Shown piece by piece: positions 12,373-38,682 of a stretch of DNA of 64,000 nt. The notes beneath the pieces were generated by a model. It did not search any database. It saw nothing but the letters and a program-made list of their open reading frames with translations, and was not told where the DNA came from. This DNA is from an uncultured virus (IMG/VR IMGVR_UViG_3300038520_001826) (lineage: Duplodnaviria > Heunggongvirae > Uroviricota > Caudoviricetes): IMG/VR virus record IMGVR_UViG_3300038520_001826. One strand, 5' to 3'. How positions within the stretch are numbered: the first letter of the stretch is position 1; the number at the start of each line of letters is the position of its first letter. The position numbers and the translations under genes were made by a program.

Positions 12373-12843
12373 ATGAATTGGTTTGATTTACTTAAACTTG
12401 ATTTTGCAGGATATGATGCAAAAGGATTCCTTGAGCATTTGCAAGATACTTTAGGTGGAGATGTTAGTGAAAAGAAAGAAGGTAGCATTAATGTATTTTC
12501 TTTAGATTATGACGAAGGCTACATTAAATTAAGAAGAAGAAAGGATGGAGCATTCTTTGTTATTACACACAAGGGCTCATTTTCAGAAGATAAGAAATTC
12601 AATAAGCCTACTTATAATCTAAAGAAGATTGTAGATGAGTTACTGGATTATTTGCAAGATGCTGAAACTTTTGAGAAGTTTGACATCGATGGTCTTGATT
12701 TTTCAAAGGCTACTCCAGAAGAACAACTTTCATGGTTTAATTCATTAAAAGCGGGGGGTGCAGTAACTACTGCTACACCTGCAATTATTAACGTAAGATA
12801 TTCAAAGAAAAAGGAGGATGAAGAATTTGGTCAAAAAGACTAA
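12373..12843 (+). CDS. W-tagged protein (MNWFDLLK)
   Basis: GGAGG RBS; tag plus internal SWFNSLK. Confidence 0.8.
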   Translation: MNWFDLLKLDFAGYDAKGFLEHLQDTLGGDVSEKKEGSINVFSLDYDEGYIKLRRRKDGAFFVITHKGSFSEDKKFNKPTYNLKKIVDELLDYLQDAETFEKFDIDGLDFSKATPEEQLSWFNSLKAGGAVTTATPAIINVRYSKKKEDEEFGQKD

Positions 12844-13885
12844 AAAGAATGTTGTTTCTTTGAATGGGACTACTATTGAATTTACTCCTTACGAGTTTGT
12901 TACTAATTATAACAAGTGGAAAGAAACTATGAAAGGAGTTTCTGCGGGTTCTATTTATTCGACCAAAGACCTTTATGAAACTGTTGATAGTCATGTTAAT
13001 ACTGCTACTAGAAGAGGAAGGTCTAAAAATTCTGGAAGTAAGGGGGCTTTTACAGTAATTGCCGATATTGAAGAACTAATTATGCAAGGCAAGCAAATTT
13101 TTACAAAAGAAGATTTACAACTATTGAAGAAGTTTGAAGACATACTAGAGGGTTTTCTAGCAAGTCCTACCTTAAATCCACAGAATGTCAAATTTACAAA
13201 GCCTAAAGAATGGAGAGTTAGCAAAGATGGTAAAAGGATAATTATTACTGATGATGACCCTGTTGATTATTATGGGCATTTTGTCGATTTAGGAACAGAT
13301 AAAACTTCTTACTTCCGAGCAAGGAATAAAATCAATGAAGAAACTGAAGGTAAAAAGGGTATTAGTTTAAGCGGTTGGAAAGAGGAGTGGTCAAGTGATA
13401 AAAAGAATACTGCAAAACCCCCACTTTATATGGCACTTTATGAAAAATATGCTGGACAGGATGGGTTATTGCCAATTATTAAAGCAGCCATTAAAGAACT
13501 TGAAGAAAAGGGATATGATGTTACAATTACTAAATTGCGACAAGCAAATAAATTAGCAAGGATTCCTGAAATTAGAAGAGTTATTTCTGGTCTTTTGAAA
13601 AGAAGAGCATTATTTGATGGTGGGGATTTTAAAACAAATAATGCAAGAACTGAACTTAAGAGTAAAGTTATTGAGTTAAGTGAACAATCAGCAGAAAGAC
13701 TTAGCGTTATTCTTTATGGAGAAGTTCTTGCGGGGGATTTAGGCCAAGTTCAATTAGACTTGACAAAACCTGCTATGAAGAGATTAATTGAATTAGCGGT
13801 GGTTACAAGGACTTCTGAATTAAAGGATAGAAAATCACCAAGCGGAGAACCTATTGTTCTTAAATCATGGAAGATGATATTATGA
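12818..13885 (+). CDS. hypothetical protein (head region)
   Basis: 355-aa ORF; ends VLKSWKMIL. Confidence 0.85.
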   Translation: MKNLVKKTKKNVVSLNGTTIEFTPYEFVTNYNKWKETMKGVSAGSIYSTKDLYETVDSHVNTATRRGRSKNSGSKGAFTVIADIEELIMQGKQIFTKEDLQLLKKFEDILEGFLASPTLNPQNVKFTKPKEWRVSKDGKRIIITDDDPVDYYGHFVDLGTDKTSYFRARNKINEETEGKKGISLSGWKEEWSSDKKNTAKPPLYMALYEKYAGQDGLLPIIKAAIKELEEKGYDVTITKLRQANKLARIPEIRRVISGLLKRRALFDGGDFKTNNARTELKSKVIELSEQSAERLSVILYGEVLAGDLGQVQLDLTKPAMKRLIELAVVTRTSELKDRKSPSGEPIVLKSWKMIL

Positions 13886-14382
13886 GTTGGAAAGATATTC
13901 TGAAAGGCGAAGAAGTTCATCCTAGTGTTAGAGGATACATTAAGGATAGAGATACTAAAATTGAAAGACAAAGACCAAAGGATGATAAAACTTTATTCCA
14001 ATTAGATGTTATGAATCGCTTTAGAGATTTTGCTATAAGGGTGATAGGTTTGAATTTTAGTGGAAGAACTGATATGAGAAACGAAAAGGGTGAAATAAAA
14101 ATGCCACTTACCATATCAGTAATACAACTTTTAAAGAAATATCGTAATAAGGAGCATTATCTTGGAGATGCTGAACCTTTTCTTATAACCCCAGCAGAAT
14201 TCATCGAAAAGGAAAGAAAGTTAGCAGAAGTCATTATTGACCAGATAGTAGACACACTTAAGGTATTTCCTAAATCGGAAGATATTGAAGCATACAATCC
14301 CGATGATGGTTATACTCCAAACTTCGTTAGATATGCTAAATCCAAACTTCCTAGATTATCTGTTTCTATGGTAACTGATTGA
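13882..14382 (+). CDS. W-tagged protein (MSWKDILKGEEVHPSV)
   Basis: Tag; extended N-terminus shared with 14393. Confidence 0.8.
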   Translation: MSWKDILKGEEVHPSVRGYIKDRDTKIERQRPKDDKTLFQLDVMNRFRDFAIRVIGLNFSGRTDMRNEKGEIKMPLTISVIQLLKKYRNKEHYLGDAEPFLITPAEFIEKERKLAEVIIDQIVDTLKVFPKSEDIEAYNPDDGYTPNFVRYAKSKLPRLSVSMVTD

Positions 14383-14392
14383 GGTGAATGAA

Positions 14393-14905
14393 ATGAATTG
14401 GAAAAAAATATTGAAAGGTGAAGAGATACATCCTTCTGTTGAAGGTCATGTTGAAAGAGGTCAAAGAGCATTACAAGCATTAAAAGAAAATGTACGTACT
14501 TTGGAGAATACATATAATACTGTACCGCTAAGTCCAAAAGAAGAAAAAGAAATGATGAAAAAAATCAAAGACCTTCACGCTGATATTAACAGACTACAAG
14601 TATATTATGAAAGGCATGGAATGTCTCCACGTTATGATGATAGAAACGTTAAATTTACGAGAGAAAGGGAAACAATAGATGAAGATGATGAAAAGGCTTT
14701 AAGAAGATTAGATAGAAAAACTTCAGATGCATTAGACAAAAGAGTTTTAGAACTTGTAAGGGCAAAAAAGATTACTAATTATGAGAAAGGTCTTTTGTAT
14801 AATGCAATAAATAATGGATGGCGTGATGATTATAAACGCTTAAGGGAACTCGCTAAAGAAATTGGTGTCTCCTTTGACGATGCTTTTACATCTGCAAAAC
14901 AATGA
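14393..14905 (+). CDS. W-tagged protein (MNWKKILKGEEIHPSV)
   Basis: GAGGTGA RBS; tag. Confidence 0.8.
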   Translation: MNWKKILKGEEIHPSVEGHVERGQRALQALKENVRTLENTYNTVPLSPKEEKEMMKKIKDLHADINRLQVYYERHGMSPRYDDRNVKFTRERETIDEDDEKALRRLDRKTSDALDKRVLELVRAKKITNYEKGLLYNAINNGWRDDYKRLRELAKEIGVSFDDAFTSAKQ

Positions 14906-15572: not shown

Positions 15573-15769
15573 ATTGGAAAGAGGAAATTAAAAAACAAGA
15601 TTCAAAGACGAGTTTAGAAAGTCTGTTGCGAGAGATAAATAGAGATATGCAAAACCTTGACTCAAATCCCGAAAAAGAATATAATTCAAGAATTATTAAA
15701 ATTAAAATGTCAAGTTATAAAGAACAAGTAGAAAGAATTTTACAAAAAATGCAGGAGAGACTACAATGA
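15569..15769 (+). CDS. W-tagged small protein (MNWKEEIKK) flanked by a 28-bp direct repeat
   Basis: Tag; ends MQERLQ like the upstream gene. Confidence 0.75.
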   Translation: MNWKEEIKKQDSKTSLESLLREINRDMQNLDSNPEKEYNSRIIKIKMSSYKEQVERILQKMQERLQ

Positions 15770-16089
15770 ATTGGGAGAATCTAATTAAAAGAAGTGGGAT
15801 GGCATATATATTATTTAAAAATAGAACTGGTAGTTTGCCACCTGACCATGTAATTGAGGCTGGCTACGGAGAAATTGACGGCTATCCTGTTAAAGCATTT
15901 TCTTCATATAAGATTCTATATGATTTTCTATTAAGACAGAAACTTATGGAGTTAGAGCCTAACAATGTAGAAAGTGGGGGAACGCCTGTTTTCGATACTT
16001 ATAAAACTAAAGAATTTAAAGAAAAATTAGGGAAAGAAGGACTTTATGTTGTTACTGTGCCACTTGATACTATGGGGGATATTGAATGA
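15766..16089 (+). CDS. W-tagged protein (MNWENLIK)
   Basis: ATGA overlap; tag. Confidence 0.75.
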   Translation: MNWENLIKRSGMAYILFKNRTGSLPPDHVIEAGYGEIDGYPVKAFSSYKILYDFLLRQKLMELEPNNVESGGTPVFDTYKTKEFKEKLGKEGLYVVTVPLDTMGDIE

Positions 16090-16370
16090 GTTGGGAAAAG
16101 ATATTAAAAAGAGAATCTTGTTGCGAAAATGCTAAGAATCGAGTTAGGTCAATATTTACTGATAGAATAGAAAGAATAAAAAGAGGTGATGGGTTCGGTA
16201 GCATAGAAAATGAGCGTCAGAATATAGAAACTTTAGAAATGCTAGATTGCGATGAATTAAAGGATTATCTAAGATATGAAGTTCGTCGGATGAAGAACGA
16301 CCCTACTAAAGATGAATTGTTATTCAAAGAAATACTAGAAGAATGGAACACTTGTGAAGATAATAGGTGA
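16086..16370 (+). CDS. W-tagged protein (MSWEKILK)
   Basis: ATGA overlap; tag; CC...C...C. Confidence 0.75.
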   Translation: MSWEKILKRESCCENAKNRVRSIFTDRIERIKRGDGFGSIENERQNIETLEMLDCDELKDYLRYEVRRMKNDPTKDELLFKEILEEWNTCEDNR

Positions 16371-16377
16371 AAAAGAA

Positions 16378-18168
16378 ATGAACTGGCAATTCGTCTTGAA
16401 GGCTAGACCTTCTCCTAACACTGTGTTAGTTGAAATTGTTATTGCTTTTGACGAATTATACAATACTCTTAGCAGTGGTAAAATGGGAAGTGCTTCAACT
16501 GGTTCAGGTGTTTTCAAGAAAATGTTTAGGGAAAATCCTGATTTAGATACTAATTTTGAAACAGTTAGAAAAGTATATGGACAATATTCCTTATCTCATT
16601 TTTTGGAACATATTACTGAAAAGGAATTTCTTGATAGATTTTCTAAGGTTAAAGAACTACTTACTCAAAAGACAAAAAGAACCGACTATAATGAAAAATT
16701 TTTCCAAGAACTCTTCTCTTCTAAGAAAAATCCAACAAATATTAAAGAATTGTTGGTAATTTATCAGAAAAAGATTGCTGATAGTGTTCCTAAGCAGACC
16801 CGTTCGGATTATATTAAGAACAATGTAGAAAATACTGCAAGAATTCAGTCATTATACAAGAAAAATCAAGAAAAACCGACAGTTGAGCAATTTAGAAAGA
16901 ACGAAGTGCCTAATTTTGACTACGTTTTGGTGAAAGTGATAGTCGAGGGAAAAGAAAAACCCAAAAAAACGGGCTGGACAACCGATGGAAATGCTTTACT
17001 TAAGGTCTTTGAAGAAAATTCGGACAAAATTGAGTCGGAAGTAGCAAAAATTGACAACGTTTCCGAAACAAAAGTCATTTTTTCACCAATTCGCAAGAAT
17101 TTTGGAGAAAAAACCTCTCTCGAAATAGAAACTACTGCAAAAAACTACAATGCAGTAGAGGTAAATCAAGCAAATATCGCAAATTATCTAAATGTTATTG
17201 AATATTTGCCAAGTGTTAGTAATCTTAGTAAATTAGACAAGCAAATTTTTGCAGTGAACGTTGAGAAAATCAAAAATGTTGGATTATTTGGCAGTAAATT
17301 ATCAAATGTTCGACAATTATTAAGAGAAGTAATTACATCAGAACCACAAGCCCTAATTGCTAAGTTTTCACAAGAACAATTTAAGAATAGGAGAAAATTT
17401 GGACAATATTTCCTACAAGATAAAGGAATTCCAGAAGCCGAACAATCTACTAAACTAGATACTTTTTTAAGGCAATATACTTTGTTAAAAGATAGAGAAC
17501 TCTCCTCTAAAGATTATGAAGAAAAGCCCATGGATGAAAAGATTATTGTTTCCCAAGATGATTTTAGAACCTATAACGAATTTAAAAACGGCTATGATAG
17601 ATTAATGAGAAATGTTCAGCAAGGAACCGTTGATGAGGACTTTAATGAGAAAATAGGAGCATTACCTTTTACTGATTTATTGAAACAAGTCGTTGATGAG
17701 GGAAGAGAAGATGAAACTGAAGTAGTAAGCATAACTCAAGTATCTAATGCCATTAAAACCCTATTGGATAAAACTGATAGGAGTTTCCTCAACATTCTAT
17801 TAATTGTGTCATTTTTAGGATACGGTTCAAGAAACGGTTCTGAAATTTTTAAAGTAATAGATGACTACGAAAGCGAGATGAAGAAAAAAAGAAAGGAATT
17901 AAGAGAAAGGACTAAAAAATGGAGACAAGGGGGAAAACAAGGAAAAAAACCAGTTGCTGAGAACCCTCCTAACAAAGAATTTAATTCCAAACTCGAAAAA
18001 CTATTCATCGAAAATCTAAACGCATTTAAAGAAAAACTATTTGAAGCAGTTAATACTCTATTGCAAGGTATTGCACAAAAAGAAGATGAAAAGTATTTTT
18101 CAATCGCTAACAACAACAAACTTATAAGCAAGTTAGTAGAAAGCAAATTGTTGGAGGAAGCACAATGA
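16378..18168 (+). CDS. large W-tagged helical protein (MNWQFVLK), putative internal virion protein
   Basis: AGGTGA RBS; tag; K/E-rich. Confidence 0.8.
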   Translation: MNWQFVLKARPSPNTVLVEIVIAFDELYNTLSSGKMGSASTGSGVFKKMFRENPDLDTNFETVRKVYGQYSLSHFLEHITEKEFLDRFSKVKELLTQKTKRTDYNEKFFQELFSSKKNPTNIKELLVIYQKKIADSVPKQTRSDYIKNNVENTARIQSLYKKNQEKPTVEQFRKNEVPNFDYVLVKVIVEGKEKPKKTGWTTDGNALLKVFEENSDKIESEVAKIDNVSETKVIFSPIRKNFGEKTSLEIETTAKNYNAVEVNQANIANYLNVIEYLPSVSNLSKLDKQIFAVNVEKIKNVGLFGSKLSNVRQLLREVITSEPQALIAKFSQEQFKNRRKFGQYFLQDKGIPEAEQSTKLDTFLRQYTLLKDRELSSKDYEEKPMDEKIIVSQDDFRTYNEFKNGYDRLMRNVQQGTVDEDFNEKIGALPFTDLLKQVVDEGREDETEVVSITQVSNAIKTLLDKTDRSFLNILLIVSFLGYGSRNGSEIFKVIDDYESEMKKKRKELRERTKKWRQGGKQGKKPVAENPPNKEFNSKLEKLFIENLNAFKEKLFEAVNTLLQGIAQKEDEKYFSIANNNKLISKLVESKLLEEAQ

Positions 18169-23952: not shown

Positions 23953-24075
23953 GTGGGCTTAGGAAATCATAATTTTATGTATTGTGGTATTTGCTACAAA
24001 GACGGAGATAAACCATTCGGATTCTGTAACTTATGTTGGATTGCTCATGGAAGACCAAAGGGGATGAAAGAATGA
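23953..24075 (+). CDS. small Zn-finger peptide, not in ORF track
   Basis: GGAGG RBS with GTG start; CGIC...CNLC; ATGA overlap with next gene. Confidence 0.55.
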   Translation: MGLGNHNFMYCGICYKDGDKPFGFCNLCWIAHGRPKGMKE

Positions 24076-24404
24076 ATTGGCAAACTATTCTTAAAAAGAA
24101 GAAAAGACACCCTGCATTAGTGAGAGCAGGGGTCAGTGGTTTTAGTAAGCCTAAAAGAATCAAACACAAAACTAAATCTCACATAGTTGTCGTAAAAGAT
24201 GGAGATAAAGTTAAAACAATCAGATTTGGCCAAAAAGGTGTAAAAACAAATCAAACTGCTGGACAGCGAAAAGCATTTAAGTCTAGACACGCTAAGAATA
24301 TTAAACGTGGAAAAATGTCTGCGGCTTATTGGGCAAATAAGGTTAAATGGAGCCCAAGTAAGACTAAAGAAAAAAAGAATAAAAGTTGGAGAAAGGGGTC
24401 ATAA
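24072..24404 (+). CDS. W-tagged highly basic protein (MNWQTILK)
   Basis: Tag; K/R-rich; IRFGQKG...FKSRH...SAAYWA. Confidence 0.8.
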   Translation: MNWQTILKKKKRHPALVRAGVSGFSKPKRIKHKTKSHIVVVKDGDKVKTIRFGQKGVKTNQTAGQRKAFKSRHAKNIKRGKMSAAYWANKVKWSPSKTKEKKNKSWRKGS

Positions 24405-24406
24405 TT

Positions 24407-24526
24407 ATGAAGTGGTGGAATTTTCTCAAAAAATTAACGAAAACCTGTCCTGTTTGTGGACATGAAAATAAAAAAGACGCTAAAAGATGTGCCAATTGCG
24501 GTGCAGATATTTCAGATGTGAAGTGA
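24407..24526 (+). CDS. W-tagged Zn-ribbon peptide (MKWWNFLK), not in ORF track
   Basis: MKWWNFLKKLTKTCPVCGHENKKDAKRCANCGADISDVK. Confidence 0.7.
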   Translation: MKWWNFLKKLTKTCPVCGHENKKDAKRCANCGADISDVK

Positions 24527-24530
24527 TATT

Positions 24531-24740
24531 ATGAAGTGGGAAGAAGTATTAAAAAAGAAAAAGAAAAGAAAATCTACTGTTAATCAATCAGGTAATTATA
24601 CTAAACCTGCACTTCGTAGAAGAATATTCAATAGAATCAAAAGAGGAGATAAAGGCGGAAAAAAGGGCGAATGGTCTGCTAGAAAAGCACAAATGGTTGC
24701 CGCAGCGTATAAACGGGCAGGTGGTGGCTATCGCAATTGA
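24531..24740 (+). CDS. W-tagged highly basic protein (MKWEEVLK)
   Basis: Tag; YTKPALR...WSARKAQ...YKRAGGGY. Confidence 0.8.
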   Translation: MKWEEVLKKKKKRKSTVNQSGNYTKPALRRRIFNRIKRGDKGGKKGEWSARKAQMVAAAYKRAGGGYRN

Positions 24741-25005: not shown

Positions 25006-25010
25006 TTCTT

Positions 25011-26032: not shown

Positions 26033-26434
26033 ATGGATTGGCAAATAATTTTAAAGGAATTGCTTTGCCCTTTGGCAACAAAAAGCGTCTACATAAATAC
26101 TAAAAATAGAGACGAAGCAATAAAAAATAAAAACGTTAAATATGGGCCACTAAATGTAGATGAACCTGCTGATTATTGGGAAAAGATAGCAGAACATTGG
26201 AATACAACAGAAGAGGCGGCTAAAAAATCTAGATGCTCAAATTGTGTTGCTTTCGATATTAGTCCTAGAATGAAAAAATGTATGCCATTAGAGGGCGAAT
26301 TGGGATATTGTTGGATGCATGACTTCAAATGCCATAAAGATAGAAGTTGCTATACTTGGGCAAAAGGTGGCCCAATTGTCCAAGACGAAGTATCTAAAAA
26401 GAATCAAATGAGGAAAGAAGGCAAAAAGGCTTAA
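26033..26434 (+). CDS. W-tagged Cys-rich protein (MDWQIILK)
   Basis: Tag; CSNC...GYC...C...C possible metal cluster. Confidence 0.75.
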   Translation: MDWQIILKELLCPLATKSVYINTKNRDEAIKNKNVKYGPLNVDEPADYWEKIAEHWNTTEEAAKKSRCSNCVAFDISPRMKKCMPLEGELGYCWMHDFKCHKDRSCYTWAKGGPIVQDEVSKKNQMRKEGKKA

Positions 26435-26474: not shown

Positions 26475-28112
26475 ATGGTGGAAGAGAAGAGAAGATTCTC
26501 CATTACTAACCTATTTAGGCGTTCTACTCCAAAACCTGCCGATAGACAAATTTATAACATAGGTATTCAAGAAAGAAGAAATCAACAGATGATGACTGCA
26601 CCAATCATCTATTCGATGGTGCAACAGTCTGTTATTGTTAGGACTTGCATTACTCAATTAAAGCAAGAAATCTTTAGAAGAGGATATGTTTGGGAAAAGT
26701 CTTATGAAGCCCTTTGTAAAAATTGTGGTAAAAAACATCAAAAACCTGTTACAGAATGTTCTCGTTGTGGCTCAGAAGACTTAAGACTTCCAGACCCAAA
26801 ACAGTTAGAATACATTGAAAAGTTCTTAGATAGATACGTCAATAAATCCGAACAGTTATTCATTGATGTTCTTAGGGAACTTGAAGATGATTTAAATACA
26901 ATGGATGATGCATACATTGTAATGGTAAAAGAGTATTTTATTGACGGTAATGGTAAAATACGAATGCATCGAGTAAAAGAATTATACAGGGGCGACCCTG
27001 TAACTATGTATATTTATGCTGATGAAAATGGTGTAAGAGGAACAAAGGGTTTCACTTGCGTAAATCATCGTGATATTATTGCTACCGAACCACATGAAAC
27101 TTGTGAAGTTTGTGGCAGTAATTTATTTCCTATTCATTATGTAAATAGAGTTGGAGGCGAAGACCAATACTTTTTAGAAGGAGAAGTGCTTCATTTTAGT
27201 AAATACAGTCCATCTCGTCTTTATGGATTATCACCTATTTTAACTCTCTATAACCATATTATGACTTTGATTGCTATGGAGAATTACGTCAATTCATCCT
27301 ATACAAAGAGTAGAATGCCAAGAGGTCTATTAGCAGTTCAAACAAGAAACATGGAGTCTATGCGCTCTTTCTGGAGGTCTGTTAAAGAAAAGATGGAACA
27401 AGACCCGCACTTCATTCCCGTCATGGGAATCGAAGCAGAGAACGGTAAAGGGGCCGTTGAATGGATTAAGTTCATGGACAGTCTGAAGGAGATGGATTAC
27501 GTTTCAGTCAAGGATGATTTGCGGGATAGAATTTCAGCATTCTATGGTGTCAGTAAAGTATTTATGGCTGATAACACTACAAGTGGTGGATTAAACAACG
27601 AAGGTATGCAGATTCTTGTTACAAATAGAGCAGTTCAAATGGCTCAGAATGTATATAATAATTATGTATTTCCGTTTTTGGTTAAACAGTTTGGAATTAC
27701 AGATTGGAATTTAAGATTACCACCAAGCGAAGAAGAAGATGAAATTGCAGTATTGCGTAAAAGAGAAATTGAAGTCAATATTGCAGCATCAATTAAGAAT
27801 TTAGGATTTGAAATTGAAATGGATGAAGATGGCCAATTCACTTATACTAAACCTGAACCTAAAGAAGAAAAACCAGAAGAAGGTGAAGATATGATAGAAA
27901 ATGACCCATTAGCAGGTTCTAATTTAGACCAAAGGGATTTAGATGAACAAGCGAGACAATTTGCTCAAAGTGGAGGAAAACCACAAGAAAATCCACCTGC
28001 TACAAGAAATAAGCCATCAATGAGTACTGGGCCTGATAAAAGATTACAAGGATTACCTCAAGATGCAGGGAATCAAAACGTAGATAGAAGAAGTGAAAGG
28101 AGAGTTGGATGA
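26475..28112 (+). CDS. portal protein with Zn-ribbon insertions
   Basis: YGLSPI, MPRGLL, ISAFYGV portal-like motifs; between TerL and protease/MCP; CKNC..CSRC and CVNH..CEVC. Confidence 0.88.
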   Translation: MVEEKRRFSITNLFRRSTPKPADRQIYNIGIQERRNQQMMTAPIIYSMVQQSVIVRTCITQLKQEIFRRGYVWEKSYEALCKNCGKKHQKPVTECSRCGSEDLRLPDPKQLEYIEKFLDRYVNKSEQLFIDVLRELEDDLNTMDDAYIVMVKEYFIDGNGKIRMHRVKELYRGDPVTMYIYADENGVRGTKGFTCVNHRDIIATEPHETCEVCGSNLFPIHYVNRVGGEDQYFLEGEVLHFSKYSPSRLYGLSPILTLYNHIMTLIAMENYVNSSYTKSRMPRGLLAVQTRNMESMRSFWRSVKEKMEQDPHFIPVMGIEAENGKGAVEWIKFMDSLKEMDYVSVKDDLRDRISAFYGVSKVFMADNTTSGGLNNEGMQILVTNRAVQMAQNVYNNYVFPFLVKQFGITDWNLRLPPSEEEDEIAVLRKREIEVNIAASIKNLGFEIEMDEDGQFTYTKPEPKEEKPEEGEDMIENDPLAGSNLDQRDLDEQARQFAQSGGKPQENPPATRNKPSMSTGPDKRLQGLPQDAGNQNVDRRSERRVG

Positions 28113-28352: not shown

Positions 28353-30653
28353 ATGATGCATCGTATTATTCTTAAAGGAGCAGATGACTGCGTATTTACT
28401 ATGTTGTCTATTATTTATGATGACATTGTAAATAAAATTGAAAAAGCAAAATATACGATGGAAGAAGGTCTTGAAACAAAGGATAGAGATGAAGCCGTTC
28501 AAGCATTAGATAAACTTCTAAATACTAAGGTTAAAGAAGAAGGCGGTAAATTAATTGTTTCTAATGATGGAAGTTCTTTGAAGAATTACATTGGTAAGAA
28601 TAAACCCCTCTTGAATACTTTATTGTTTAGTAGAGAATATACAGATAGGCCACAAAAAGAAGCAAGTAAATTACCTTCTGTTGATATTCAAAGACTACAA
28701 GTTTTAACAAAATACAAAAATTCTAAAGAACTCTTAGAAGCCTTTAAGAAGTTAGACTACAATAAGACTTTTAAAACTGAAAAGGGTGAAATTAAACCAA
28801 AGTATTTTAAAAATAAAACTATTAAAGTGCCTGAAGATTTCGATTCTTCTAAACTAGAAGCACAAATAGAAAAATTAGAGGAAAAGTACACTAAAGATGT
28901 CGAAAGAATTGGTATAAGAATAGGAACATATGATGAAAAGACAAAAAGACCTAAAGATGCCACTGAAAAAATGTTAGAAGAATATAAGAAGTCCCTTAAA
29001 GAATATAGAGAGGGAGTCAAAAAAATTACTGATAAAATTGATAAATTAAAGGGAAAAACAAAAGAAAAGACAATTAAAATCTTTAAAGACAATTTTTCAG
29101 ATGATATTAAAGAGTTCAATAATAATAAAAGATTACTTTCTCGATTTATTGAAACCGATGACGAAGGAAATGTGAAGGCAATAGAAGGATTAAATAAACT
29201 AATTAAAGATGCTCCTCAAAAAATTAAAGAAATGAAATCAGCACAAAAAGACATTGATTCAAAAGAAACTGACGCTCTTTCATTATTTTTAAATTCACCT
29301 GCTCCTAAATACGTGGGTGTATCAGGTTCAGTTACAAGACGAGGTAAAGGCACTAATTATGATATTCTCATATATGATTTAAGAAAGGTTTTAGTTCTTT
29401 TATTAAATGCATTTGGCCCTGAATACAAGAGACAAGTAAATACAATGATGGAGAAAATTAAAGATTCTCTTTCTAATGAAATGGAAAGGCTAAAAGATAT
29501 TAAAGTATCTGATGAAACTGCTAGGGCCGTTCAACAAGAAGGAAAACTTACTGATGAAATGGATTCGTTTTACACTAAGTTATCAAAGGTTCTAAGAGAA
29601 TTGAATTCAGAAAGAGCCGTTGTAGATTTCTTTAAAGAAAAACCATTCTCAAAACAAAGACTTATCCGAATGATTATGGAAGATAAAGACTACCTTAAGT
29701 ATAGAATCCCGAAAGCAAAAGAAAGTGATAAGTTAATTCTATTAAAAGATAAGATGGCTGAACCTTCTCAAATTGGTGATATTAAGGAAAGGCTTAACAA
29801 AAAGAATATCTCCAAAATTATTACTATTCTAATTAAAAATAAAATTAGTCCAAGTGAATTATTTACTGTAAAAGATAAGGCTACTGTTAAGTCAAAGTTT
29901 AAGAAATATACTGATGACCTTTCTGATATTGTTGAAAGAGTAGAAAATATGACAATTAACATTAAAAACGAATTAGAAAGTCAGATTGACGAGGCTAAGG
30001 AAATTATTGTTATTCAGGAACAAATTGGAAAAGATGATTTTACTAATTTAAAACAAGACCTACAATCAATTGATGATAAAATTAGTGCAATAAAGTTAAA
30101 AGAATTAGAAACTTACGCTAATTACCTTAGACAACAATTAAGTAAGCCAATAAAAGAAAAAGAATCTAAAGAACCAATAGGAGAAAAAGATGCAGAAGAA
30201 TATATAAAAATTCAAGAGATGACTTCAAGCGCATTAGTAGTATATACTAAGAAACTTAGAAATCTTATTGAAGAAAGCGAGAAGCAATATAAAAAATTAT
30301 CAGAAGAATATGATAAATTAGAAGAAAAAAGGTTTGAAGAACCTCAAAAATATTCTGCTCGTAAGGAAGAACTAAAAAACTTTAAAACAAATCAAATCAA
30401 ATTAAGAAAAGATATAGTTGGATTTAAGAGAGAACTTTACAATGTTGAAGCAAAACTAGAAAATCTTATCAGAATAGTAACAGTATTGCGACAAAAACCT
30501 TTATTTGAAAAATTCAATGAAGCATTTATGAGTAGAGATAAAGATGATATTAAGCGACTAGAAAATGCAATGAGAAGAGTTAAAAGAATATTGCGAGCGA
30601 AGGAAGCACCAAAGGGAGCAACAGCAAAAAGAAATTTAAGGAGAGGAAAGTAA
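28353..30653 (+). CDS. large coiled-coil protein (head region)
   Basis: 766 aa, K/E-rich heptads; begins MMHRIILKG. Confidence 0.8.
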   Translation: MMHRIILKGADDCVFTMLSIIYDDIVNKIEKAKYTMEEGLETKDRDEAVQALDKLLNTKVKEEGGKLIVSNDGSSLKNYIGKNKPLLNTLLFSREYTDRPQKEASKLPSVDIQRLQVLTKYKNSKELLEAFKKLDYNKTFKTEKGEIKPKYFKNKTIKVPEDFDSSKLEAQIEKLEEKYTKDVERIGIRIGTYDEKTKRPKDATEKMLEEYKKSLKEYREGVKKITDKIDKLKGKTKEKTIKIFKDNFSDDIKEFNNNKRLLSRFIETDDEGNVKAIEGLNKLIKDAPQKIKEMKSAQKDIDSKETDALSLFLNSPAPKYVGVSGSVTRRGKGTNYDILIYDLRKVLVLLLNAFGPEYKRQVNTMMEKIKDSLSNEMERLKDIKVSDETARAVQQEGKLTDEMDSFYTKLSKVLRELNSERAVVDFFKEKPFSKQRLIRMIMEDKDYLKYRIPKAKESDKLILLKDKMAEPSQIGDIKERLNKKNISKIITILIKNKISPSELFTVKDKATVKSKFKKYTDDLSDIVERVENMTINIKNELESQIDEAKEIIVIQEQIGKDDFTNLKQDLQSIDDKISAIKLKELETYANYLRQQLSKPIKEKESKEPIGEKDAEEYIKIQEMTSSALVVYTKKLRNLIEESEKQYKKLSEEYDKLEEKRFEEPQKYSARKEELKNFKTNQIKLRKDIVGFKRELYNVEAKLENLIRIVTVLRQKPLFEKFNEAFMSRDKDDIKRLENAMRRVKRILRAKEAPKGATAKRNLRRGK

Positions 30654-31027
30654 TGACATGGGATTTTTACGATACAGGAGAAGATTTTATTCTCAAAGAA
30701 AAAAAAGTAGCAAAGAATCTACTAGATACATTAAGTCCTAAAGAAAGAAAAATATTGAAAAAGAAAGTTCAATCGGCATCACCGACTGAATTCTTTGGAC
30801 AAGACTTTACTAAATTAGGAGAACTTATCGAGTCTTTAAGAGAAATCAATTTTATTAAAACAGATGATAAGTTAAAAAAGAAAATGAAATCAATGGATGA
30901 AAGGAATATTGATATAGTTGCCACAGCATCCAAACTTCGTAAGGAGTATGAGTTGCTCTATCGTCAATTGCGAGATTTAGTTTATCCACCAAAGAAAGGA
31001 GAGAAAAAAGATGACAGAAAAGAATGA
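30653..31027 (+). CDS. hypothetical protein
   Basis: TAATG coupling; MTWDFY...FILKE. Confidence 0.75.
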   Translation: MTWDFYDTGEDFILKEKKVAKNLLDTLSPKERKILKKKVQSASPTEFFGQDFTKLGELIESLREINFIKTDDKLKKKMKSMDERNIDIVATASKLRKEYELLYRQLRDLVYPPKKGEKKDDRKE

Positions 31028-31253
31028 AGTTAGTAATGATATTTTGGCTATATTGAAAGCCCTAACAGATAAGATTGAATCATTAGAGAGAACAGTTTAT
31101 GCAAAGGATAATTTGTTAATGAAATCTGGTCTTGTTGTTTCAGAGAGTCCTACTCCATCAATGGACAATAAAATTGCTTCACCAGTAGGTGATGTAGCAA
31201 GCATGGATTGGTCTGAAATTCATAAAATGGTGGAAAAGGTAGGAGGTCAGTGA
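31011..31253 (+). CDS. small scaffold-like protein ending MDWSEIHKMV
   Basis: Coiled coil plus a C-terminal motif nearly identical to the protease/scaffold C-terminus. Confidence 0.7.
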   Translation: MTEKNEVSNDILAILKALTDKIESLERTVYAKDNLLMKSGLVVSESPTPSMDNKIASPVGDVASMDWSEIHKMVEKVGGQ

Positions 31254-31254
31254 T

Positions 31255-31500
31255 ATGCCTGAAAGAATAACAAAAGAAGAAAGAATGGTTTCCTTAGCCA
31301 TTGAAAAAGCAAGAATCGCTAAGGAAAAATTAAGCGAAAAAAAGAGAATGAATATAGAACCTACTCAAGTAAATCCAGTTGATACTACGGTAGAAGTACA
31401 AAAGATTACAAGACCTAAAGTTCAAGATGCTTCAAAGATTACAAATCAAACTCAAGACAAAGAAGGTTATGGTTTGGCTGGCGAAAGTAGAGTTAAGTGA
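31255..31500 (+). CDS. hypothetical protein
   Basis: ORF with RBS in the head module. Confidence 0.65.
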   Translation: MPERITKEERMVSLAIEKARIAKEKLSEKKRMNIEPTQVNPVDTTVEVQKITRPKVQDASKITNQTQDKEGYGLAGESRVK

Positions 31501-31506
31501 TAATCC

Positions 31507-34008
31507 ATGCCTCTTCTCATTGAAAAGGATAAAGATTCTTCTGAAGAGATTATACGTCTTTTCGAGAAAACAAGAGTCGCTTATCTATCTGCTCGCACCG
31601 ACCCCAAAGAATATGGGAATAGGTGGCGTAAAGCAATTGATGACATTAGAGAAATCTATGAGCAATTGAATGAACTTAGTAAAGAAATGAAAAATTTTGT
31701 TCAAGAAAACGAATTAGAAAACAAAGAAGCAAAAGACCCTACAAGTAATATCGCTGAAAAGATTTACAACGGTATTAAAGAAATGCGATTCAGTTCTGAT
31801 TTAATTTCAGACCCATTCGCAAGAAAATACAAAGGGGATGTTCTTGAAGGATTGCTTTCTTCTCCAGAAATGATGGTCAAATTTGTTCACTATGCTTTAA
31901 GAAATGATGATAAAGCACTTCCAAAAGAAGTTTGGAGCATTAAAGACATGGAAGCCGACACGATAACTGATGGGTTGAAAGGACTTGACCTAGATGAAGA
32001 GGACATTCCTCTCTATATTATCGAACAGTATGGTGACGATAAAGACTCAAAAAAGGTAGAAAGCAAAGTTAAGGCTGCCTTAGAGATATTAGAAACGTTA
32101 TTTTTCTCCAAATACTCAAAAGAAGATTTAAAAGACTTGAAGGAAATTGATGGTATTGAAAAGTCCGAACAAAAATCTAAAAGTGATTTCATCATTCCTA
32201 ATAAACCAATGTATAGAATCTTCGATATTGATGACATGAATGAATTAAAGGGCTTCTCAGGAAATTACCTTGTTCAAGAAAAGTATGATGGTATGAGAAT
32301 ACAGATTCATAAGATTGATGGTAATGTTCGTATCTATTCATATAATGAAAAAGATATTTCTGAAAAGTGCAAAAAACAGGTTGAAGAACTTAAAAAGAAA
32401 AAGTATGGAGATTGCATTCTTGATGGCGAATTGATTCTTTTTGACGGTGACGAAGCCCTACATCGTGCTGATACTATTGCTCATGTATTTAAGAATAAAT
32501 ACCCTGATGCTAAGTTAAGAGCGCACGTTTTTGACATTATGAGACACAATGAACAAGAATTAGTAGAAGAAGAACTTGATAATCGAATCAATACTTTATT
32601 TAACAACTATTCAATGCATTCAACAGAAGCAATAGCATTTCCATCAAAGAAAGATACAAGAACTGCTGATAACTTGAAGGATGTGGAAGAGTATGCGAAA
32701 GAGATTATGGATATGCCTACATCCGAAGGCGTAGTTATCAAGGATATGACCTCGACGTATTACATAGGCACAAGAAAGAATCCTAAGTGGATTAAGTGGA
32801 AGAAGTTTGTTGATTTGGATTTAATTGTTCTTGATAAGAAAACTACAAAATCAAATCTAAATTCATATACATTGGGAGCAGGGCCAGCCGAAGGAGAAGG
32901 AAAGTTTTATTCTGAAATTGAAGGTAAAGTCTATATGGATGTTGGTAAGGCATTAAATACCAAAATAGATGTAGATATTGGAGATATTGTTCGAGTTAAG
33001 GTTGATGAAGTTAAAAAGAATGGAGATAGATATACTTTGTTTTCTGCAAAGGTTATTGAAGTTCCTGAAGTTGAATATCCCGACAAAATTGTTACACTAG
33101 AAATGCTTTCACAAGATACTAAGAAATCATTGAATTATGATGTTAAAGCATTAGAAAAGGGAATTATTGTTACAGACCATATTCATGGAGAAACTAATGT
33201 AATTATTAAATCCGATTTTGATGGTTTTACTATTTATGGTTTTGAAGAAAGTAATCTTATGTCTAAGAACGCATTAATTGATATTGATATGTGGAAGGCA
33301 CAAGCCGAGGAGATAATGAAAACTAAGCAATCACAATTAACTCAAATAGTATTTAATCATTTAAAAGAAAACGGTTCCAAAACTCCCAAAGAAATACACA
33401 ACTTCTTAGTTAAAAATCATAAATCTATTTATGAAGACATATTGGAAAGTAAATTAAATAGAGTCAAGGATTGGTTTGAAAATAGAGATGGCATTTCTTT
33501 TGATATGAAAACTAAAAAATTATTTTCTGAGGATGATAAAGTTATTAAAGAACCAGCGATGTTAAAAGCATATAAAACTCCAGAAGAATATCGTAAAGGT
33601 AATTTTAAGATTTATTTGAGAGATGATAATAATTTAAACTTTACAATATCTGTTGGCGGAGAAACAATGCATTGGTATATTGAACTTAATGAAGAGGATG
33701 ATATCTTCGATTTATTTGGAAAGGCGGGTAAATATCCTGCTGAAGTTTCAAAGAATGTTTCTAAGGATAAGGTAATTGATTCTGGCAAAATTGAATTAGG
33801 ACTACAAAGGCATGGTTATCATGAGTATTTCTTAGAAGGAAATAAGTTTGAAACAAAATTACACATTAGAGTATTACCTGTAAAAGATAAGAAAATGTGG
33901 CTTGCATGGACTGGATTCAAACAAACCCCTGCTGATAAGGACAATGACGAAGGAATCTGGAACATCTATGAGGATAGGTTTAACGAATTAACCATACCAC
34001 AAGAGTAA
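31507..34008 (+). CDS. lig: ATP-dependent DNA ligase with N- and C-terminal extra domains
   Basis: EKYDGMR (motif I), LDGEL (III), VFDIM (IIIa), EGVVIK (IV), WIKWK (V), then OB-fold-like segment. Confidence 0.92.
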   Translation: MPLLIEKDKDSSEEIIRLFEKTRVAYLSARTDPKEYGNRWRKAIDDIREIYEQLNELSKEMKNFVQENELENKEAKDPTSNIAEKIYNGIKEMRFSSDLISDPFARKYKGDVLEGLLSSPEMMVKFVHYALRNDDKALPKEVWSIKDMEADTITDGLKGLDLDEEDIPLYIIEQYGDDKDSKKVESKVKAALEILETLFFSKYSKEDLKDLKEIDGIEKSEQKSKSDFIIPNKPMYRIFDIDDMNELKGFSGNYLVQEKYDGMRIQIHKIDGNVRIYSYNEKDISEKCKKQVEELKKKKYGDCILDGELILFDGDEALHRADTIAHVFKNKYPDAKLRAHVFDIMRHNEQELVEEELDNRINTLFNNYSMHSTEAIAFPSKKDTRTADNLKDVEEYAKEIMDMPTSEGVVIKDMTSTYYIGTRKNPKWIKWKKFVDLDLIVLDKKTTKSNLNSYTLGAGPAEGEGKFYSEIEGKVYMDVGKALNTKIDVDIGDIVRVKVDEVKKNGDRYTLFSAKVIEVPEVEYPDKIVTLEMLSQDTKKSLNYDVKALEKGIIVTDHIHGETNVIIKSDFDGFTIYGFEESNLMSKNALIDIDMWKAQAEEIMKTKQSQLTQIVFNHLKENGSKTPKEIHNFLVKNHKSIYEDILESKLNRVKDWFENRDGISFDMKTKKLFSEDDKVIKEPAMLKAYKTPEEYRKGNFKIYLRDDNNLNFTISVGGETMHWYIELNEEDDIFDLFGKAGKYPAEVSKNVSKDKVIDSGKIELGLQRHGYHEYFLEGNKFETKLHIRVLPVKDKKMWLAWTGFKQTPADKDNDEGIWNIYEDRFNELTIPQE

Positions 34009-34031
34009 AACCGAGCCTATTAAATAGTGAA
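34007..34031 (+). promoter_or_regulatory. late promoter (AAAACCGA..TATTAAATAG)
   Basis: Near-identical element at 37692-37715. Confidence 0.55.
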
Positions 34032-34055
34032 CTGAATTACAAGGAGTTGAAGGAC

Positions 34056-35318
34056 ATGAGCATCAGTATCATGGCAACAAGACATGATGAGTTTAACATT
34101 ATCAAAAGCGATGAACTGATGATTGGTGGATATGCAAGCATTGAAATTGTAGATAAGCAAAATGATTTAATAACCTTAAAAGCATTAAATGAAGCCGTCA
34201 AAAAGTTCATGGAAAAGCCTGAATATAGAAATGTAATGACAAATCATTCAAATGTTCAAGTCGGAGAAGTAGTAGATTCATATAGAGATAAAACAGGGAG
34301 ATTGTGGAAAACAGAAGTAGATGATGTTGGATTCTTTGTTGTAATCAAATTAAGAGATGATATAGAAAAAGCCAAAGAAGTTGGTAGAGGAATTCGCAAA
34401 GGGTCGTTAAGGTCATTTAGCATTGGAGGACAGGCGTTACAGAAATCTAAGAAAACACATTCAGAAATGGGTGAATACAACGAGATTAGTAAATTAGAAC
34501 TGCACGAAGTAACAATATGCGAAAAAGGAATTAATCCCGAAGCGAGATTCGATATTTTAAAACAAGATAAAGGAGAAAGAAATATGTCAGAAAAACTAGC
34601 GAAAGCATTAGAAGAATTAGACGCATTGATGGAAGAAGTCAATACGTTGAGAAAGGAAGAAGAAGAAAAGAAAGAGGATGAGATGACGGATGAAAAAGCC
34701 ATGAATCCTAGAGCGATGGAAATGATGGAGGAAAAAGGCATGTACGGAAAAGGAAGCCATGAAGAAAAGGAAGACGAAATGATGGAAATGCAAGACGTTC
34801 CAACAGACGAAGACGAAATGATGGAATACAAGGAAGAAGCAGAAAAAGCCTATGTTCGTACATTAGATGGTGCAGGTAATCAAATCGGTGAACCTGCTGA
34901 TAGAATCGTCATTAGCGGTGGAAGACCAACATCCTCGGATATGCCTGTTGTTAAGGCATTCAACAACGATGAATTAGATACACTTGATTTATCTGTTGGT
35001 AACATTGAGAAGGCTTACGAGGCTTTCCGACAAGAACAACTTGAAAAGTTGGCTTATGACAACTTACAAAAGTCTTTTGAAGCACGTTTCGCAAGAGAAA
35101 AGGCTTCAAGAGAAAATATTCTCGCAAAGTCACAATATGATGCACAAAGCGAGATTGCATCCCTTAAGGATGAATTTACACAATTAAGAAAGTCTTTGAC
35201 GGCTGAAAAGGAAACAATCCTAAAGGCCCAAGAAGAAGCAAAGATTGAACTCCCAAGTATTGATGATTTGGCTGAAATGGATTGGTCGGATATTCACAAG
35301 ATGGTAGGAGGTTATTAA
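34056..35318 (+). CDS. prohead protease fused to scaffold domain
   Basis: IGGYAS..DKQND, NHS, SFSIGG, LHEVTIC..GINP HK97-type protease motifs; acidic coiled-coil C-terminus; directly upstream of MCP. Confidence 0.9.
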   Translation: MSISIMATRHDEFNIIKSDELMIGGYASIEIVDKQNDLITLKALNEAVKKFMEKPEYRNVMTNHSNVQVGEVVDSYRDKTGRLWKTEVDDVGFFVVIKLRDDIEKAKEVGRGIRKGSLRSFSIGGQALQKSKKTHSEMGEYNEISKLELHEVTICEKGINPEARFDILKQDKGERNMSEKLAKALEELDALMEEVNTLRKEEEEKKEDEMTDEKAMNPRAMEMMEEKGMYGKGSHEEKEDEMMEMQDVPTDEDEMMEYKEEAEKAYVRTLDGAGNQIGEPADRIVISGGRPTSSDMPVVKAFNNDELDTLDLSVGNIEKAYEAFRQEQLEKLAYDNLQKSFEARFAREKASRENILAKSQYDAQSEIASLKDEFTQLRKSLTAEKETILKAQEEAKIELPSIDDLAEMDWSDIHKMVGGY

Positions 35319-35319
35319 G

Positions 35320-36654
35320 ATGGTAGGATATATTAACACTATTGCAGATTTAGAAGCACAAACATACGGAACAAGCACTTTTGCTGGTAATTCTTTACTA
35401 AAGCAAGCAGGAATGGTTGGTGGCATTCATACAGGACATGATGGTGGCCCTGCATTTAGCGGTTCAGCCGTTTCAGATGTTTCAGCCCTATACAATGTCG
35501 TTTATGGACAAAAGGTTTGGTCTATGCTAAACCGTGAAGTTAATGCATTATCAATGATTTCAAAGCGACCATACTCTTCTAGCGGTTGGAGAGTTCTAAA
35601 GTCAAGACCTTCTGGTGGAAGCGGTAATTTGTTTACTGTTGATGCAACTGGTACTGCAACTTTGGCTGAATTAGGTTCAGATGACCCAAGAGCAGACTTA
35701 ATTGGTGGTGTTCCAGAAAATGCAGCACTATCCAACGCAAACGACGGATTAGGCCCAATTGCACCAACATATGCTCAATTAAACATGAGTCCAAAGGTTG
35801 TTGCTCACCAATTTGATTTCAGCGAATTGGCTATGGAAATGGCTCAAATTGACGATGGTATTGGCGACATTAGAGCGCAAATGCGAGAAGACATGGGTAA
35901 GCATCACGCAGAAGTTCAAAACAAGATGTTAGTTATGCCTTTGGAGCATTATGGTGAATCTTCGGCTATGCCTAACATTGCTAACAATTACACTTCATTA
36001 AACAAGGTAGTTACTTCAAGAGCAGAATTATTGGCTATTGATGGTGGAGTTATTGCTACTGATACTACTTCTGCTTCTAACGCATTAGGAAAAATTTACG
36101 GCAATGAGAGATTTAGTGCCGCATCTTTCCTAGATGCTGAAGTTGATTTCGGTTCAGGTTATGCTTCTGGAGATGTTCGTGCTTTGACCCTAACTCGTCT
36201 TAATGACATGATTAGAAACCTAAGACTTGCGGGTGGTTCACCAAAGGTTATTCTAACTGGATATGATACTATTCAAGCACTTGCTGACCTATTGCAAAGT
36301 CAAGAGCGATTTATGGATAGAAAGGAGATTGTACCCACTGTAAATGGTGTTCGTGGAACAAAAGGTCAAGAAGTTGGATTTAGAGTTGCAACATACTACG
36401 ATATTCCATTGATTCCTGTTAAGGATATGTGCCAAACAGGTAACGCTTCAACGAAGTTATCTGACTTATTATTCCTCGATACTGACCATATGTGGCTTTC
36501 TGTTATGAAGCCTACTCAATACTTTGAGGATGGTATCGCTAATGGAAATCCATTTGGTGTAGGTACTCTCGGAAACAGAGCATTGTATCGAACAATTGGT
36601 GAAGTAGGATGTTCCTTCTTTAAGGGTCAAGGTAAGATTACTAACATTCAATGA
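35320..36654 (+). CDS. major capsid protein (HK97 fold)
   Basis: 444 aa directly after the protease; GGSPKVILTG and YYDIPLIP P-domain-like motifs. Confidence 0.88.
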   Translation: MVGYINTIADLEAQTYGTSTFAGNSLLKQAGMVGGIHTGHDGGPAFSGSAVSDVSALYNVVYGQKVWSMLNREVNALSMISKRPYSSSGWRVLKSRPSGGSGNLFTVDATGTATLAELGSDDPRADLIGGVPENAALSNANDGLGPIAPTYAQLNMSPKVVAHQFDFSELAMEMAQIDDGIGDIRAQMREDMGKHHAEVQNKMLVMPLEHYGESSAMPNIANNYTSLNKVVTSRAELLAIDGGVIATDTTSASNALGKIYGNERFSAASFLDAEVDFGSGYASGDVRALTLTRLNDMIRNLRLAGGSPKVILTGYDTIQALADLLQSQERFMDRKEIVPTVNGVRGTKGQEVGFRVATYYDIPLIPVKDMCQTGNASTKLSDLLFLDTDHMWLSVMKPTQYFEDGIANGNPFGVGTLGNRALYRTIGEVGCSFFKGQGKITNIQ

Positions 36655-38463: not shown

Positions 38464-38682
38464 ATGGTAGTATCAGATTGGTTAGGCTTTTCTGATTCAG
38501 ATTATGCCTACAATGCACAAAGAGCGCATTCAGCAGACATTCTCTTTCTAAAAATGAGAATGTGGTTTTGGGCTACTTGCGCTACGCTTTCAGCATTTTT
38601 AATTGGAAACATCATGGGTGTTTTCGATATTAATGTAATGGGTTGGTTAATTGACACCATTTCAGGTGGGTGGGGTCATTAA
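38464..38682 (+). CDS. small membrane protein
   Basis: Hydrophobic C-terminal half. Confidence 0.7.
   Translation: MVVSDWLGFSDSDYAYNAQRAHSADILFLKMRMWFWATCATLSAFLIGNIMGVFDINVMGWLIDTISGGWGH

Follow-up and report, generated by a model that had tools for sequence, protein, structure and literature searches.

A C-terminal W-helix module shared by the protease-scaffold and a small protein of a marine archaeal virus, and its loose likeness to N-terminal tags

We analyzed a stretch of 64,000 nucleotides (hereafter, the window) from an uncultured tailed virus (IMG/VR record IMGVR_UViG_3300038520_001826), in which two genes of the head region end in nearly the same ten-residue peptide. The first open reading frame (ORF), on the + strand at 31011-31253, encodes a small protein of 80 residues whose C-terminal end is ..MDWSEIHKMVEKVGGQ (in a longer view, VASMDWSEIHKMVEKVGGQ). 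The second, on the same strand at 34047-35318, encodes a protein of 423 residues with a protease domain of the S78 family and a scaffold region, and its C-terminal end is ..MDWSDIHKMVGGY (in a longer view, LAEMDWSDIHKMVGGY). An initial annotation of this DNA had described the motif MDWS(D/E)IHKMV as duplicated, and both peptides do lie at the ends of these two ORFs. The coding sequences of the two copies, ATGGATTGGTCTGAAATTCATAAAATGGTG and ATGGATTGGTCGGATATTCACAAGATGGTA, are identical at 25 of 30 bases; four of the five differences are synonymous changes at third codon positions, and the fifth accounts for the E/D exchange. This pattern points to selection on the peptide, and not to a recent copy.

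Scanned in all six frames for the pattern [ML].W..[ILVM].K, the window gave 15 matches: the starts of 11 ORFs on the + strand, the two C-terminal peptides (hereafter, tails) and two others, one with an internal stop and one in a frame of 13 codons on the - strand. With only two stray matches, the pattern is rare by chance. We refer to the octapeptides at ORF starts as tags. In the relatives of this virus, all six Ser codons occur at position 4 of the tail and all six Leu codons at position 7 of the tag, so that both signals act at the protein level.

Homologues of the small protein formed 120 clusters of 71-100 residues in a large protein collection, none of them named, and the protein had no Pfam, PHROG or PDB relative of note. 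In an alignment of 33 sequences (A1), W67 and I70 of the tail are invariant, and M65, S68 and V74 are conserved in at least 90% of the sequences. A second conserved site lies upstream, with L36, K38 and G40 invariant and M37 conserved in at least 90%. AlphaFold2 (AF2) run on A1 gave a mean predicted local distance difference test score (pLDDT) of 71, with helices at residues 2-29, 35-39 and 67-77; confidence is low over residues 55-59. The first helix reaches a pLDDT of up to 92, and a heptad spacing of its hydrophobic residues can be read directly from the sequence. The last helix holds the W motif (we call it the W-helix); it is a predicted amphipathic helix at the C-terminus, kept while the rest of the protein varies. 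When A1 was compared by hhalign with a profile of the 125 C-terminal residues from 28 scaffolds (A5), the match had a probability of 97% and an E-value of 1.2e-10 over 57 columns. It aligned residues 11-79 of the small protein to residues 72-125 of the scaffold segment (~55 residues), with T-I-L-K393 of the latter lying opposite L-M-K38. This profile match identifies the small protein as a paralogue of the scaffold's C-terminal ~55 residues, and thus as a free-standing mini-scaffold. The initial annotation had proposed a mini-scaffold or an adaptor; it is the first of the two that agrees with the paralogy, with the predicted helix-linker-helix architecture and with the co-occurrence of the small protein and the protease-scaffold described below. 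A nested in-frame scaffold gene of the lambda C/Nu3 type was ruled out, as the two proteins come from separate ORFs and their motifs start 4,074 nt apart (31203 and 35277). Profile searches of PDB found no chain at E<=0.08 for either the small-protein profile or the scaffold, the best match (0.087) being an unrelated type III secretion protein.

The larger partner matched PF04586 (Peptidase_S78) over residues 23-173 (E 5e-10; 40.2 bits, with a cut-off of 21) and the PHROG head maturation protease (E 3e-15); over this domain it is a prohead protease of the Peptidase S78 (HK97-type) family. The protein is acidic, with an isoelectric point (pI) of 4.8 and a net charge of -31. The next gene downstream encodes the major capsid protein. 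Its AF2 model (pLDDT 68; predicted template modelling score 0.66) was matched by Foldseek with probability 1.00 to the shells of Mic1, SU10, HK97, T5 and encapsulin (E 3e-7 to 1e-4), and the modelled fold is a bona fide HK97 fold; a PDB sequence search with the capsid protein gave nothing relevant. Its N-terminus is conserved among 68 sequences (YINTIxDLEAxTYG ... L27-K28), with D10, E12, Y16, G17 and K28 invariant. A further search for capsid protein homologues listed only proteins at least 69% identical, leaving the depth of the alignment unchanged.

We then considered the distribution of the two tails in 309 loci plus the window, a set that comprises close relatives and the loci around three distant protease-scaffold representatives (P0122, P0128 and P0130, with 54%, 48% and 42% identity). 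Among these 310 sequences, pattern searches identified the scaffold motif in 254, the small-protein motif in 189 and both in 155, the remainder being mostly truncated. The median distance between the two motifs in these 155 loci was 4,376 nt. When only loci with a scaffold motif and at least 8.7 kb upstream were considered (n=144), the small-protein pattern matched in 136. Seven of the eight misses have a small ORF ending in a W motif and one locus (L045) has none; after this manual rescue, the small protein is present in 143/144. In the reverse direction, the scaffold motif was matched in 75 of 82 loci, and all seven misses were failures of the pattern. The pair of protease-scaffold and small protein thus appears, from these sequences, in essentially every relative that covers both. 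The initial annotation had made its proposal depend on the scaffold motif being conserved in tag-bearing relatives, and we found that it is.

The tail peptide of these magroviruses follows the ten-residue consensus M-[DES]-W-x-[DE]-[IV]-[HN]-x-[ML]-[VA]. Position 7 varies together in the two proteins. In the 25 loci whose scaffold has N there, the residue of the small protein is N (21) or D (4); in the 130 whose scaffold has H, it is H (96), R (15), E (11), D (6) or N (2). Such co-variation fits a partner shared by both tails. The motif also extends beyond this lineage. Among 150 representatives of the protease family (at most 50% mutual identity, some of them fragments), 28 have a W-type motif within their last 40 residues. 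A relaxed pattern that fits 24 of these 28 turns up elsewhere in the same proteins in only 5 of 1582 windows of 40 residues. By its position and spread, the W motif is old and C-terminal in this family. The broad consensus is [ML]-[SDT]-W-x-[DE]-[IVL]-[HNE]-x-[LMI]-[AV].

About 12 genes in the window open with M-x-W-x-x-[ILV]-[IL]-K, 11 of them strictly and the rest as variants (Table 1). The two tags that the initial annotation had singled out, MDWQIILK (26033) and MSWEKILK (16086), are real ORF starts. In 80 close loci plus the window we counted 237 strict N-terminal matches, 237/237 on the + strand. Across lineages the consensus is M-[ST]-W-x-[DE]-I-L-K, with no consensus at position 9. As with the targeting peptide of T4 discussed below, a short N-terminal peptide is here common to unrelated proteins. 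The tag appears to be modular, given that PHROG families 17747 and 7595 match only from residue 8 or 10 onward. In the family of the protein at 24531, the tag is followed by a variable poly-Lys linker and then by the conserved domain. The tagged protein at 24072 weakly matched phrog_220, annotated as "minor head protein and DNA pilot" (E 4e-5). Tagged proteins had a median pI of 9.05 (n=18) versus 5.5 (n=36), a borderline difference (Mann-Whitney p=0.06).

Table 1. Features of the window, in order of position.
Feature	Position	Strand	Basis or remark
Tag MNWFDLLK, 156-aa protein	12373..12396	+	
Tag MSWKDILK, 166-aa protein	13882..13905	+	
Tag MNWKKILK, 170-aa protein	14393..14416	+	
Tag MNWENLIK, 107-aa protein	15766..15789	+	
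Tag MSWEKILK, 94-aa protein	16086..16109	+	
Tag MNWQFVLK, 596-aa protein	16378..16401	+	
Large terminase	21145-22569	+	Pfam/PHROG
Tag MNWQTILK, 110-aa very basic protein	24072..24095	+	phrog_7595 matches residues 10-93
Tag MKWWNFLK, 39-aa zinc-ribbon-like peptide	24407..24430	+	
Tag MKWEEVLK, 69-aa very basic protein	24531..24554	+	phrog_17747 matches residues 8-68, right after tag
Tag MKWKEVLK, 180-aa protein with EF-hand-like loop	25490..25513	+	
Tag MDWQIILK, 133-aa protein adjoining portal gene	26033..26056	+	
Portal	26475-28112	+	Pfam/PHROG
124-aa protein with split tag (MTW + DFYDTGEDF + ILK)	30653..31027	+	Just upstream of small protein
80-aa putative mini-scaffold: N-terminal heptad helix, DNLLMKSG, PTP, variable linker, C-terminal W-helix	31011..31253	+	ORF, alignment A1
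L-M-K38 of small protein, candidate protease cut site	31116..31124	+	Alignment A1; hhalign, aligned with scaffold T-I-L-K393
W-helix motif MDWSEIHKMV of small protein	31203..31232	+	ORF translation, six-frame scan
81-aa ORF, no Pfam or PHROG family	31255..31500	+	ORF only; between small protein and ligase
ATP-dependent DNA ligase	31507-34008	+	Pfam DNA_ligase_A_M E 8e-30; between the two scaffold paralogues
Prohead protease (S78), acidic scaffold region and putative C-terminal docking module	34047..35318	+	PF04586, PHROG
C-terminal ~55-residue module of scaffold (helix, T-I-L-K393, linker, W-helix)	35154..35315	+	hhalign of A1 vs A5
W-helix motif MDWSDIHKMV of protease-scaffold	35277..35306	+	ORF translation, six-frame scan
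HK97-fold major capsid protein, presumed W-helix receptor	35320..36654	+	Pfam SU10_MCP; PHROG major head protein E 2.5e-22

Several further observations concern the tagged proteins. Clustered at 24033-25484 are genes for small proteins, four to five in number, that are very basic (pI 10.7-11.9; net charge +21 to +29 per 100 residues). Most of these proteins are tagged, and they could be DNA-associated internal head proteins. The family of the 124-aa protein with the split tag is the most widespread tagged family, with 151 homologues in the loci; its sister lineages start with MTWQEILK, MTWEDILK or MTWEYILK, and here the tag is split by ~9 residues. The tagged 180-aa protein (25490-26029) has an EF-hand-like loop, DKDKDGRITGKDF, kept in relatives and weakly matched by Pfam EF-hand_7 (E 0.007). 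The tagged ORF of 39 residues at 24407-24526 has two CxxC pairs (MKWWNFLKKLTKTCPVCGHENKKDAKRCANCG...), resembling a zinc-ribbon mini-protein. Two tag-like octamers lie inside proteins: KGWKEVLK, at residue 43 of the protein encoded at 25002-25484 (16.3 bits under the tag matrix described next), and LSWFNSLK, at residue 119 of the protein starting at 12373. These may be fused or mis-started genes.

The initial annotation had also placed tags and tails in the same register, and proposed that the tag mimics the docking helix of the scaffold. We built a matrix from positions 2-8 of 365 tags of related loci and scored with it the 19,490 octamers of the window proteome. The two tails ranked 19th and 21st, with 5.8 and 4.6 bits. 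The 16 top-ranked tag-type octamers scored 9.5-23.6 bits; 13 of them are at or next to ORF starts, two are internal and one is at a variant start. By this score the tails clearly resemble the tags, yet fall outside the tag set. The common register does hold within the window (M1, W3, I6 and K8). However, M1 of the tag is the obligatory start codon, and is expected to be removed by methionine aminopeptidase when position 2 is S or T, as in most tags, whereas tails keep their M1 (147 of 155 loci). The best-conserved positions also differ: they are I6-L7-K8 in tags versus W3, D/E5, I/V6 and hydrophobic residues at 9-10 in tails, with overlap only at W3 and I6. L7 and K8, constrained in tags, correspond in tails to H/N and to variable residues, and positions 9-10, constrained in tails, are K-rich or variable in tags. 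Furthermore, the tags remain unchanged (I-L-K) in lineages whose scaffolds end in HKMV, HNLA-type or NALV sequences, so that tags and tails do not co-vary and the match at K8 is restricted to the lineage of the window.

Tails were also found without tags. In 69 loci with scaffolds of the type W-x-x-V-H-x-[LM]-A, each with its own small protein, we did not find any tag on the gene strand. These loci reach no further than 10 kb from the protease; within that distance the window has 5 of its 11 strict tags. In a subset of 58 loci from this lineage, 13 of 1025 + strand ORFs start with M.W, without consensus. Since tails occur without tags in these loci, and tags are constant across tail types, comparison of the loci suggests that the tail system is older than the tags and independent of them. 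An antisense MVWLSVLK, identical in 10 tag-free loci (L213-L222), is probably a chance frame kept by conservation of the sense gene. Two comparisons of capsid proteins were discarded. Those of the tag-free lineage are shorter (370-397 vs ~444 aa), which might have revealed a capsid feature linked to tags, but the differences are scattered loops of 3-12 residues. The capsid N-terminal arm and the class of tail differ together between two deep lineages, yet this amounts to one split only.

In light of these results we consider it unlikely that the tags mimic the docking helix, fill the same capsid pocket and load changeable cargo, with the small protein as a further client or adaptor. The likeness is loose (W3, an acidic residue at 5, I6), and it is set against the different conserved positions, the lineage-bound K8 and the tails without tags. 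Consistent with mimicry are the shared residues themselves (W3, mostly acidic 5, I/V6, and K8 in this lineage), the high rank of the tails among all octamers, and the confinement of the tags to the strand and neighbourhood of the head genes. The same holds for the tendency of tagged proteins to be basic and of the scaffold to be acidic, and for the modular tag, with its one weak match to a minor head protein and DNA pilot family. The capsid targeting sequence (CTS) of T4 provides a precedent for a shared N-terminal address (PMC3012670). A co-fold of the capsid protein (A3, 68 rows) with the tagged 69-aa family (A4, 20 rows), run without controls, scored 0.00, and weighs neither way. A related possibility, which we also regard as doubtful, is a loading system like that of encapsulins: proteins with M-x-W-x-[DE]-I-L-K would dock in the scaffold pocket on the HK97-fold shell, be walled in and then be cut free from the shell after I-L-K, and the mini-scaffold would set the pockets left for cargo.

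HK97-type proteases prefer K at P1, and sites of the form hydrophobic-hydrophobic-Lys lie at domain borders of all three head proteins: K20, K172 and K393 in the scaffold, L27-K28 in the capsid protein and L36-M37-K38 in the small protein. Conservation across 214 distinct scaffolds is 100% for K20 (with S/A/G as the next residue in 98%), ~100% for I170-L171-K172, where the protease domain ends, and 82% for K393. Conserved sites of this kind could also be taken to mean that the likeness of tags and tails is that of a protease recognition element, the tags being leaders removable at I-L-K8 and the tail bearing a related cut at H-K8 that clips the last residues. We hold this to be very unlikely: sister lineages have N, A, Q, E or D in place of K8 of the tail, so that a cut there cannot be general, and position 9, after the tag, lacks a consensus.

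On the basis of the sequences and how they are conserved, the paralogy, the secondary structure predictions and the tag distribution described above, we favour with moderate confidence a reading in which the W-helix module was duplicated as a mini-scaffold and is the shared capsid anchor of both proteins, the tags being a separate leader restricted to some lineages. The module of ~55 residues, present twice in the virus, would consist of a helix, an [IL]-x-K site, a flexible linker and the amphipathic W-helix. During procapsid assembly, both proteins would hang by their W-helices from the inner face of the HK97-fold capsid protein, likely docked beside its conserved N-terminal arm, by analogy with phage 80alpha. 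The protease-scaffold would provide the protease and an acidic core, and the small protein would add a second scaffold element, probably a coiled-coil. A cut by the protease at the conserved [IL]-x-K upstream of the linker would then free both proteins from their anchors, in the manner of the maturation cut of herpesvirus scaffolds. The tags could well address proteins to the head, as the T4 CTS does. The oligomerisation, the cut sites and any role of the tags in loading are what we infer from these patterns.

Could the W-helix be a handle for another component of the head instead, for scaffold-to-scaffold contact, for the portal or for presentation to the protease domain? In the P22 and herpesvirus scaffolds the extreme C-terminus is the coat-binding element. 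Here the motif ends many S78 protease-scaffold fusions that otherwise differ after the protease domain, which fits a partner as conserved as the HK97-fold shell. In solved systems too (80alpha and CpmB), the extreme C-terminus of the scaffold binds the coat (PMC5644958). We therefore think such a handle quite unlikely, even if both carriers of the W-helix bear conserved [IL]-x-K sites and T4 sends its internal proteins to the scaffolding core and not to the shell (PMC3012670).

A number of points weigh against a shared capsid anchor. The contact of the W-helix with the capsid protein, and the docking site, are drawn by analogy alone, and residues 1-7 and 15-88 of the capsid model have a pLDDT <50, exactly at the proposed docking region. 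The W motif itself supplies much of the hhalign score. The co-variation of the tails reflects few inherited lineage splits, and could come from shared descent and not from a shared partner. The [IL]-x-K sites are conserved, yet such tripeptides are common, and cutting there is conjecture. Tags match the tail at W3, mostly at acidic 5 and at I/V6 far above background, which leaves a common origin or a common pocket conceivable. Finally, in the closest cultured relatives checked, the protease (that of HCTV-1) ends ..RKSWEEEDDPATDG.., and not in this motif; matches among cultured viruses were to the haloarchaeal HCTV/HVTV viruses alone (9 records), over the protease domain only and with 29-32% identity. 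Weighing these points, we regard the duplicated docking module as conserved and real and as probably functional, and its link to the tags as loose and unproven.

The window comes from a magrovirus, one of the tailed viruses that infect marine Poseidoniales (marine group II) archaea. Its + strand from ~11 to 58 kb carries the morphogenetic arm of a tailed virus, as judged by Pfam and PHROG matches, including tail genes downstream of the capsid protein gene. Magrovirus groups A and B have been described as carrying an ATP-dependent ligase within the structural module (PMC5434244), and in the window the ligase gene sits between those for the portal and the protease, as in Magrovirales of the A/B type. 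A portal search of IMG/VR gave 244 relatives, the best 80 of which have at least 77% portal identity; many of the relatives are on contigs of 85-96 kb, and the type of the group is ~90-100 kb. The ligase has 833 aa, with ~240 extra N-terminal and ~400 extra C-terminal residues flanking the adenylation domain, and its C-terminus carries a conserved W motif of its own (..EGIWNIYEDRF..), unlike the docking helix. Among the tail genes, a protein of 224 aa (38670-39344) has weak GTPase-type matches (MMR_HSR1 E 0.004). The window contains three runs of 10 N (5682-5691, 7690-7699 and 45263-45272), the last of which interrupts the ORF at 44330-45310.

Magroviruses count among the most abundant viruses that infect ocean archaea; with none in culture, sequence is the sole route to their assembly. 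The ten-residue handle is a possible peptide to load foreign proteins into the shell of an archaeal virus. It also lies at the end of many S78 protease-scaffold fusions beyond this lineage, and so may serve more generally as a docking signal, so far unnamed. The tag of many genes, in turn, is not simply a copy of the scaffold tail, and studies of cargo loading should keep the two signals apart.

In the magrovirus and archaeal-virus capsid-targeting literature searched, supplements not covered, neither the tail nor the small protein nor the tag was found to be described. Several known systems are nevertheless comparable in part. In lambda (C/Nu3) and in herpesviruses (protease/assembly protein), protease-bearing and protease-free scaffolds end in the same capsid-binding tail, and the herpesvirus scaffold is set free by a cut close to its C-terminus. 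Those proteins come from in-frame overlapping genes and their tails are identical, whereas the magrovirus genes lie ~4.1 kb apart with the ligase between them, and their tails, unlike those of nested genes, differ by one residue and five bases within the ten-residue motif. The HK97 maturation protease, of the S78 family, is said in 2013 work by Duda, Oh and Hendrix to be carried into the procapsid by its C-terminal part. In HK97 the capsid protein itself carries the scaffold, as its delta domain, and a separate mini-scaffold is not known.

For the tags only, the likeness is to T4, whose CTS brings internal proteins to the scaffolding core and is cleaved off by the prohead protease (PMC3012670). 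Tag and CTS are both short N-terminal peptides on a varied set of proteins from genes near or among those for the head. Their sequences are unlike, and for the magrovirus tags both loading and removal are conjectural. A second N-terminal case is the Prp leader, found on the 80alpha capsid and scaffolding proteins and on ribosomal protein L27, which a host protease cuts between F and A (PMC5744158). There, too, one conserved N-terminal peptide is borne by non-homologous proteins, serving as a protease site and not as an address; that the magrovirus leader would be cut by the viral S78 protease, with Lys at P1, is conjecture.

By analogy, the magrovirus pair is closest in logic to the scaffold of 80alpha and CpmB of SaPI1. 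Dearborn et al. (2017; PMC5644958) describe the last 16 residues of the 80alpha scaffold as an amphipathic helix and a hook beside helix alpha1 of the capsid N-arm; CpmB (72 residues) has a homologous tail, binds the same capsid site and competes with the 80alpha scaffold (PDB 6B0X, 6B23). We did not find homology to gp46 or CpmB in the PDB profile searches, and the magrovirus tail has a W-x-[DE]-I core instead of the RIIK hook. CpmB is encoded by a satellite and shrinks the capsid, whereas both magrovirus genes are viral and kept together in essentially all relatives. The large magrovirus partner is, in addition, fused to a protease, and capsid binding is proposed here by analogy. In both cases, a long scaffold is accompanied by a helical protein of ~70-80 residues with a homologous C-terminal amphipathic helix, and the N-terminal helical dimerisation part and flexible middle of CpmB may have their counterpart in the predicted helix and linker of the magrovirus small protein.

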